Assembly (NCBI RefSeq): GCF_044324875.1
Contig: NZ_CP172185.1
From: Escherichia coli
GTDB taxonomy: Bacteria > Pseudomonadota > Gammaproteobacteria > Enterobacterales > Enterobacteriaceae
Reading direction: 5' to 3' (one strand)
DNA: 64,000 nucleotides
The notes beneath the pieces are model-generated. The model was not told where the DNA came from, ran no database searches, and saw only the letters and a list, made by a program, of their open reading frames with translations. Made by a program: the position numbers and the translations under genes. Numbering within the stretch: the stretch's first letter is position 1; every line of letters begins with the position of its first letter. Below are positions 14,656 through 17,048 of this stretch, in pieces.

Positions 14656-14684
14656 AGGCGGGAAATGCTCCCGCCTTATTTTTT
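14656..14684 (+). terminator. dksA intrinsic terminator
   Basis: aggcggga-aatgc-tcccgcct hairpin followed by tatttttt; sits over the first in-frame ATG of the gluQ ORF. Confidence 0.8.
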
Positions 14685-14694
14685 GTTCAAAGAG

Positions 14695-15591
14695 ATGACA
14701 GACACACACTATATTGGCCGCTTTGCCCCCTCTCCTTCCGGCGAGCTTCATTTTGGCTCTCTGATTGCCGCGCTTGGCAGCTATTTACAGGCTCGCGCTA
14801 GGCAAGGTCGCTGGCTAGTACGCATTGAAGATATCGACCCGCCTCGTGAAGTTCCCGGTGCCGCAGAGACTATCCTGCGCCAGCTGGAACATTACGGTCT
14901 GCACTGGGACGGCGACGTTCTCTGGCAATCGCAACGTCACGACGCCTATCGCGAAGCACTCGCCTGGTTACATGAGCAAGGACTAAGTTATTACTGCACC
15001 TGCACGCGCGCGCGTATTCAAAGCATTGGCGGTATTTACGACGGCCATTGCCGGGAATTGCATCATGGACCAGACAACGCCGCAGTACGTATCCGCCAGC
15101 AGCATCCGGTCACCCAGTTTACTGACCTGCTGCGAGGCATTATTCACGCCGACGAAAAACTGGCACGGGAAGATTTTATTATTCATCGCCGTGATGGTTT
15201 GTTTGCCTATAACCTGGCGGTGGTGGTGGATGATCACTTCCAGGGCGTGAGCGAAATTGTCCGCGGGGCAGATTTGATCGAACCGACAGTGCGGCAAATC
15301 TCGCTGTACCAGCTTTTTGGCTGGCAAGTGCCAGATTACATTCATCTTCCGCTGGCGCTTAATCCACAAGGCGCTAAACTTTCCAAGCAGAATCATGCGC
15401 CTGCGTTGCCAAAAGGCGATCCACGCCCGGTACTAATCGCGGCACTTCAATTTCTGGGGCAGCAGGCAGAAGCACACTGGCAGGATTTCAGCGTCGAGCA
15501 AATCCTTCAGTTAGCCATCAAAAACTGGCGGCTTACCGCCGTGCCTGAGTCGGCAATTGTAAATTCAACATTCTCAAATGCGTCATGCTGA
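14695..15591 (+). CDS. gluQ: glutamyl-Q tRNA(Asp) synthetase
   Basis: GluRS-like catalytic domain (class I HIGH-type motif in [13 protein letters not shown]); start chosen at [10 protein letters not shown] because the upstream ATG at 14665 lies in the terminator loop. Confidence 0.85.
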
Positions 15592-15650
15592 GCTATGATT
15601 AGCCGCTATTTTTTTGTCCTGAATGATGTTTGACACTACCGAGGTGTACT

Positions 15651-17048
15651 ATTTTTACCCGAGTCGCTAATTTTTGCCGCAAGGTGCTAAGCCGCGAGGA
15701 AAGCGAGGCTGAACAGGCAGTCGCCCGTCCACAGGTGACGGTGATCCCGCGTGAGCAGCATGCTATTTCCCGCAAAGATATCAGTGAAAATGCCCTGAAG
15801 GTAATGTACAGGCTCAATAAAGCGGGATACGAAGCCTGGCTGGTTGGCGGCGGCGTGCGCGACCTGTTACTTGGCAAAAAGCCGAAAGATTTTGACGTAA
15901 CCACTAACGCCACGCCTGAGCAGGTGCGCAAACTGTTCCGTAACTGCCGCCTGGTGGGTCGCCGTTTCCGTCTGGCTCATGTGATGTTTGGCCCGGAGAT
16001 TATCGAAGTTGCGACCTTCCGTGGACACCACGAAGGTAACATCAGCGACCGCACGACCTCCCAACGCGGGCAAAACGGCATGTTGCTGCGCGACAACATT
16101 TTCGGCTCCATCGAAGAAGACGCCCAGCGCCGCGATTTCACTATCAACAGCCTGTATTACAGCGTGGCAGATTTTACCGTCCGTGATTACGTTGGCGGCA
16201 TGAAGGATCTGAAAGACGGCGTTATCCGTCTGATTGGTAACCCGGAAACGCGCTACCGTGAAGATCCGGTACGGATGCTGCGCGCGGTACGTTTTGCCGC
16301 CAAATTGGGTATGCGTATCAGTCCTGAAACCGCAGAACCGATCCCTCGCCTGGCTACCCTGCTGAACGATATTCCACCGGCACGTCTGTTTGAAGAATCT
16401 TTGAAACTGCTACAAGCGGGCTACGGTTACGAAACCTATAAGCTGCTGTGTGAATATCATCTGTTCCAGCCGCTGTTCCCGACCATTACCCGCTACTTCA
16501 CGGAAAATGGCGACAGCCCGATGGAGCGGATCATTGAACAGGTGCTGAAGAATACCGATACGCGTATCCATAACGATATGCGCGTGAACCCGGCGTTCCT
16601 GTTTGCCGCCATGTTCTGGTACCCACTGCTGGAGACGGCACAGAAGATCGCCCAGGAAAGCGGCCTGACCTATCACGACGCTTTCGCGCTGGCGATGAAC
16701 GACGTGCTGGACGAAGCCTGCCGTTCTCTGGCGATCCCGAAACGTCTGACGACGTTAACCCGCGATATCTGGCAGTTGCAGTTGCGTATGTCCCGACGTC
16801 AGGGTAAACGCGCCTGGAAACTGCTGGAGCATCCTAAGTTCCGTGCGGCTTATGACCTGTTGGCCTTGCGAGCTGAAGTTGAACGTAACGCTGAACTGCA
16901 GCGTCTTGTGAAATGGTGGGGGGAGTTCCAGGTTTCCGCGCCACCAGATCAAAAAGGGATGCTCAACGAGCTGGATGAAGAGCCGTCACCGCGTCGCCGT
17001 TCTCGTCGTCCACGCAAACGCGCACCGCGTCGTGAGGGTACCGCATGA
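15651..17048 (+). CDS. pcnB: poly(A) polymerase I
   Basis: Nucleotidyltransferase GGGVRD...DFD motifs; known non-canonical AUU start at IFTRVANF (465 aa); 4-bp overlap with folK. Confidence 0.9.

Follow-up and report, generated by a model that had tools for sequence, protein, structure and literature searches.

The locus considered here raises the question of the codon from which pcnB, the gene for poly(A) polymerase I (PAP I), is translated. It lies in a stretch of 64,000 nucleotides of Escherichia coli DNA from contig NZ_CP172185.1, which was analysed as a whole and is referred to below as the window, and in which sfsA, dksA, gluQ, pcnB and folK are all found on the + strand within 13.3–17.5 kb. 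The longest open reading frame for pcnB, at 15630..17048 on this strand, has a length of 472 aa and opens with a TTG at 15630. This TTG is preceded by the bases tgatgt and followed by the codons ACA CTA CCG AGG TGT ACT, after which come an ATT at 15651–15653, in frame as codon 8 and corresponding to the I of the translated string IFTRVANF, and then the codons TTT ACC CGA GTC GCT AAT TTT. The original prediction had placed the start of PcnB at this AUU, and the curated K-12 start, the RefSeq starts, the Shine-Dalgarno (SD) element and the conservation across 80 species all agree with that placement. We conclude that the gene in the window is almost certainly an ordinary E. coli pcnB, with AUU 15651–15653 as its main translation start. 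The features at the centre of this reading are:

15651..17048, + strand: coding sequence of pcnB, poly(A) polymerase I, 465 codons plus stop, assigned by its NF008634 score and by synteny
15651..15653, + strand: AUU initiation codon of pcnB, assigned by the curated K-12 start, the RefSeq starts and invariance in 80/80 species
15641..15646, + strand: Shine-Dalgarno element GAGGTG, 4 nt upstream of the ATT, assigned by pairing energy and invariance in 80/80 species

The identity of the gene is well anchored. Its product scores 996.4 bits against the NCBIfam equivalog model NF008634 (cut-off 702), with residues 1–464 aligned to profile positions 1–468 of 469, and its scores with models of CCA-adding enzymes fall under the respective cut-offs. 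The order gluQ-pcnB-folK is shared by the window, K-12 and a RefSeq-annotated E. coli genome, and recurs in distant relatives. A 501-base query around the pcnB start found matches of at least 95% identity in 5424 of 5426 complete E. coli genomes, the best being NZ_CP062824.1 at 99.8%. In K-12 MG1655 (NC_000913.3) the curated gene, b0143 (NP_414685.4), occupies 157729..159126 and encodes 465 aa plus stop; base 159126 is the A of the ATT start, and its flanks are identical to those in the window from about -70 to +50. Thus, the comparison with the curated K-12 annotation by which the original prediction was to be checked returned the same ATT within identical surrounding sequence, and the two genes also share the SD element, the 465-aa length and the gluQ-pcnB-folK context, without any substantive difference in the start region; the window itself derives from an E. 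coli strain other than K-12. RefSeq likewise begins the 1398-nt coding sequence at this ATT in all five other E. coli genomes that we sampled (O169:H41, O157:H7, DSM 103246, ST38 and 2017-02-2CC), likely because NF008634 aligns its first profile position to residue 1. The AUU start of pcnB is already known and is correctly annotated in reference genomes. In the neighboring gluQ, by way of a side observation, the curated K-12 gene of 927 nt starts at an ATG equivalent to window position 14665, whereas the RefSeq automatic annotation of the same five genomes gives 897 nt, with a start 30 nt downstream (window 14695) and the N-terminus MTDTHY.

To compare candidate starts, we computed the pairing energy of the 20 bases preceding each of them with the 3' end of 16S rRNA. 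For the ATT at 15651 this energy is -7.2 kcal/mol, with GAGGU forming the paired bases at a 4-nt spacing, and values of -7 kcal/mol or lower were obtained at 2.6% of the window positions sampled. An isoleucine codon is by itself unremarkable at this place, and it is the SD context that goes beyond chance. Although the literature terms the ribosome-binding site of pcnB 'poor', its computed SD is moderately strong.

The comparative evidence comes from a scan with one genome per species, which covered 80 Enterobacteriaceae loci with 86–99% protein identity. Both the ATT and the GAGGTG, at identical spacing, are invariant in 80 of these 80 species. Alignment columns upstream of -12 are variable, with entropies of 0.8–2.0 bits, and conservation at the amino-acid level sets in at the ATT. 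In 43 of the 80 species the stretch of frame from the closest preceding stop to the ATT contains no ATG, GTG or TTG. Furthermore, five species (loci L038, L049, L060, L063 and L077) have an in-frame stop 4–6 codons upstream of the ATT, and the intervening codons are of the CCG, AGG, TGY or AAC type, none of them plausible as a start.

Beyond this set the arrangement persists with minor variations. It takes the form GAGGTG-tcct-ATT in Ca. Erwinia haradaeae (61% identity), GAGGTG-tacc-ATT in record CP043324.1 and GAGGTG-tatt-ATT in Thorsellia kenyensis. In Grimontia, a member of the Vibrionaceae (locus L090, 395–403), the aligned codon is ATC, the GAGGTG-N4 spacing is kept and an in-frame TGA stands two codons upstream. 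This TGA leaves just GTT or ATC as codons ahead of FNRVTSFCRKV, which follows directly, and in the NCBI annotation the gene begins at this ATC (MFNRVTSFCRKV). Photobacterium (locus L091, 401–415) also has ATC at the aligned codon and keeps the GAGGTG, in addition to an ATG that overlaps the SD. A metagenomic homolog resembling Alteromonadales (locus L089, 529–531) has ATC with no canonical start upstream, and two relatives at 47–49% identity start with GTG. Codons 2–11 are conserved at the protein level from E. coli to the Vibrionaceae (as FNRVTSFCRKV), the changes between them being synonymous or conservative, and must therefore be translated. Taken with the upstream stops, this delimits the start on either side to the AUU/AUC codon. 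It may be noted separately that in CP043324.1 (locus L084, 1201–2698) pcnB is called as two genes, one of 316 aa with PolyA_pol followed by one of 150 aa with PolyA_pol_arg_C, a pattern that points to a frameshift, to a pseudogene or to faulty sequencing.

Among the alternatives, the one that survives best adds a second product to the AUU start and does not replace it. Here AUU would give the main 465-aa protein, and a shorter isoform would in certain conditions be made from a start inside the gene, for instance on sigma-S-dependent pS1 transcripts, at the following codon:

15804..15806, + strand: first in-frame ATG, codon M52, preceded by a weak SD-like AAGG

The pairing energy at this ATG is -3.9 kcal/mol, and it is probably the start that was first proposed by Liu and Parkinson in 1989. 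PMC2939334 describes a sigma-S promoter that lies inside the gene, past the AUU, and is active without ppGpp, as well as two bands detected with anti-PAP I on published Western blots; its authors suggest a short isoform as a possibility and term it unproven. A start at M52 would also remove residues 28–51, which include a conserved segment and lie within the crystallised enzyme, the constructs of PDB 3AQK–3AQN spanning residues 28–442. We regard such a supplementary product as improbable. The position of this ATG also bears on the notion that the first ATG or TTG of the frame would add residues before IFTRVANF: the first in-frame ATG lies downstream and would take residues away, and the notion holds for the TTG, which would prepend seven residues, MTLPRCT.

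That TTG provides the next alternative, in which the protein would be the 472-aa form beginning with MTLPRCT and the ATT would merely encode an internal isoleucine:

15630..15632, + strand: upstream TTG, rejected alternative start (472-aa form), without SD and absent in most species

It is the start of the longest open reading frame, databases contain 472-aa forms (11 of the 120 most similar protein clusters, as well as the Salmonella cluster P0013), and PMC3561954 in its introduction gives UUG as the pcnB start codon. A canonical codon is present at -7 in 28 of the 80 species (TTG in 26 and ATG in two Salmonella), where minor upstream initiation is possible, the TTG being kept in Escherichia, Citrobacter and a handful of further genera. 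Against this, the region preceding the TTG does not pair with 16S rRNA (+0.4 kcal/mol), and the GAGGTG lies downstream of the TTG and therefore cannot serve it. The remaining 52 species lack a canonical codon at -7, the five species with upstream stops have them between this position and the ATT, and the residues encoded upstream of the ATT are unconserved. The missing SD, the absence in 52 of 80 species and the stops in five largely refute the TTG as a conserved pcnB start. Curated K-12 and RefSeq annotations also reject it, the literature after 2002 assigns AUU, and PMC3561954 itself gives AUU in its discussion, the UUG of its introduction being a leftover of the older assignment. In view of this we consider initiation at the TTG highly improbable.

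Two observations on Salmonella belong here. Salmonella enterica subsp. diarizonae and arizonae (loci L022 and L023, about 1480–1482) have an ATG at codon -7 and retain GAGGTG-N4-ATT. In the main Salmonella cluster, P0013 (2921 members), the annotated 472-aa protein begins at the ATG at -7, which has no SD.

The start that remains is one that automatic annotation often selects:

15684..15686, + strand: downstream GTG, codon 12, commonest choice of ab initio callers (454-aa form), without SD

Under this alternative a 454-aa protein (MLSREES) would follow a conserved but untranslated leader. The points for it are that the GTG is the nearest canonical start, that ab initio callers pick it and that it does not vary among the 80 Enterobacteriaceae species. 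The reading can be dismissed as barely credible, since no usable SD precedes the GTG (+0.5 kcal/mol, without pairing, an AAGG directly abutting it), the codon is replaced by GTA in the Vibrionaceae Grimontia and Photobacterium, and both the codons 2–11 that bear the signature of translation and part of the residues 1–464 covered by NF008634 would be left outside the protein. Of the ATT, TTG 15630 and GTG 15684, it is the ATT that has a properly spaced SD. As an observation on its own, codon 12 is GTG in all 80 Enterobacteriaceae though valine has four codons and the neighboring codons vary at the third position.

The preferred AUU start is treated very differently by different annotation procedures, as can be seen from a tally of start positions in the 120 protein clusters most similar to the query. 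The ATT is the start in 51 of them (MFTRVANF), including P0002 with 6191 members, and those that we checked carry NCBI names. The codon-12 GTG (MLSREE, 454 aa) is the start in 33, and a further 22 begin still farther downstream, which brings the downstream starts to 55; these truncated forms are largely automatic calls from ENA, Logan and JGI. Upstream extension is rarer than truncation, with 14 clusters. The original prediction had stated that gene finders usually misplace this start. This is true of ab initio callers and does not apply to the NCBI pipeline, which places it correctly; moreover, the usual error is truncation and not the extension that had been envisaged. To our knowledge, pcnB is one of just two AUU-initiated E. 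coli genes with experimental confirmation.

The conservation around the AUU extends beyond the SD and the start codon, to a block that includes synonymous sites:

15640..15677 (-11 to +27), + strand: nearly invariant 38-nt block comprising the SD, the ATT and codons 2–9, including synonymous sites, in 78–80 Enterobacteriaceae species

Over codons 1–9 the mean third-position entropy is 0.041 bits, as against 0.95 bits gene-wide, and is the lowest of 422 windows along the gene. The 5' ends of folK and gluQ in the same species show no such dip (1.21 and 1.15 bits, respectively, versus a gene mean of 1.24), and the pcnB block is therefore not a generic 5' effect; the same two genes rule out the idea that genes of these species generally vary little at synonymous sites near their 5' ends. 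Within E. coli, 15625–15690 is identical in 5416 of 5424 genomes, and the one variant that we inspected has a C to T change at 15649. A weak local hairpin (-4.7 kcal/mol) can be drawn in which GGUG of the SD pairs with UACC of codons 2–3 and the AUU lies in the loop; it is retained in Ca. Erwinia haradaeae and absent in Thorsellia, Grimontia and Photobacterium. The 105 nt at 15606–15710 fold no better than shuffled sequences (z +1.12), and an Rfam search with the leader and initiation region gave no match at E<=1, both of which speak against a structured RNA across this region. The invariance could stem from the dependence of a weak start on its context, from the SD-pairing hairpin, from a promoter element or from a site bound by a trans-acting factor. 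It is most simply read as a sign that, where the start codon is weak, each base around it counts. That the block is a dedicated cis-regulatory element, such as an SD-pairing hairpin or a trans-factor binding site, tuning AUU initiation beyond the effect of the weak codon, appears rather unlikely to us.

As regards promoter elements, a single sigma-70-like match was detected between 15300 and 15900:

15571..15599, + strand: promoter-like TTCTCA-17-TATGAT, overlapping the end of gluQ

This is probably the promoter pB, which PMC2939334 describes as the major pcnB promoter, upstream of the ATT; the same paper places a further promoter, pS2, at about -263 to -265 relative to the ATT. The TTG at 15630 also opens a perfect TTGACA hexamer at 15630–15635, whose conservation does not reach beyond Escherichia, Citrobacter and a small number of further genera. 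The promoter scan detected no -10 partner for it at 16–18 nt, and the hexamer was accordingly set aside as a -35 box.

The original prediction had also described the AUU as a documented non-canonical start that limits PcnB synthesis. In six papers (PMC2939334, PMC3561954, PMC9764084, PMC4447247, PMC5499595 and bioRxiv 10.1101/063800) both the translation of pcnB from AUU and the limitation of PAP I by it are credited to Binns and Masters 2002 (Mol Microbiol 44:1287), which upholds the description. According to citing papers, including PMC2939334, PMC3561954, PMC4447247 and PMC9764084, that study comprised a determination of the N-terminus and a gain in expression on changing AUU to AUG. We searched the literature for ribosome profiling of start sites and for sequencing of the PcnB N-terminus, and found no study that maps the pcnB start. 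In reporters, AUA, AUC, AUU and CUG starts reach 1–2% of the level of AUG (bioRxiv 10.1101/063800), and cells contain 30–50 molecules of PAP I and are killed by an excess of it (PMC3561954). PMC5499595 states that IF3 discriminates against AUU mRNAs in general and that context matters for rare start codons.

These observations, together with the literature, fit the following mechanism. The GAGGUG element, four bases upstream, positions the 30S subunit at the AUU, which the initiator tRNA decodes inefficiently on account of the third-position mismatch. Initiation at AUU keeps PAP I scarce, as the literature on its limitation holds, and so spares the cell the toxicity of the enzyme. Discrimination by IF3 may be the limiting step, as the case of infC and the way in which AUU mRNAs generally behave would suggest.

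E. coli infC, which encodes IF3, shares with pcnB an AUU start that limits expression. Across bacteria infC uses AUU or AUC (PMC5499595), and judging from the aligned genes pcnB seems to alternate likewise, with AUU in Enterobacterales and AUC in Vibrionaceae. The two differ in that the AUU of infC acts as a feedback sensor, its product IF3 discriminating against AUU, whereas PAP I is not known to feed back on pcnB. A further parallel is ebpA of Enterococcus faecalis (PMC4447247), whose rare ATT start also lowers expression and whose start had been wrongly annotated at a canonical codon farther downstream. Unlike pcnB, ebpA encodes a pilus tip protein, its host is Gram-positive, and the two genes are not homologous.

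The significance of these results lies mainly in annotation hygiene, in that callers restricted to ATG, GTG and TTG misstate the N-terminus of PcnB, usually making it at least 11 residues too short. The comparative data lend some independent support to the AUU start and leave the understanding of pcnB unchanged. Beyond this, they hold a hint that an AUU/AUC start with a fixed SD spacing is ancient in Enterobacterales and Vibrionaceae.
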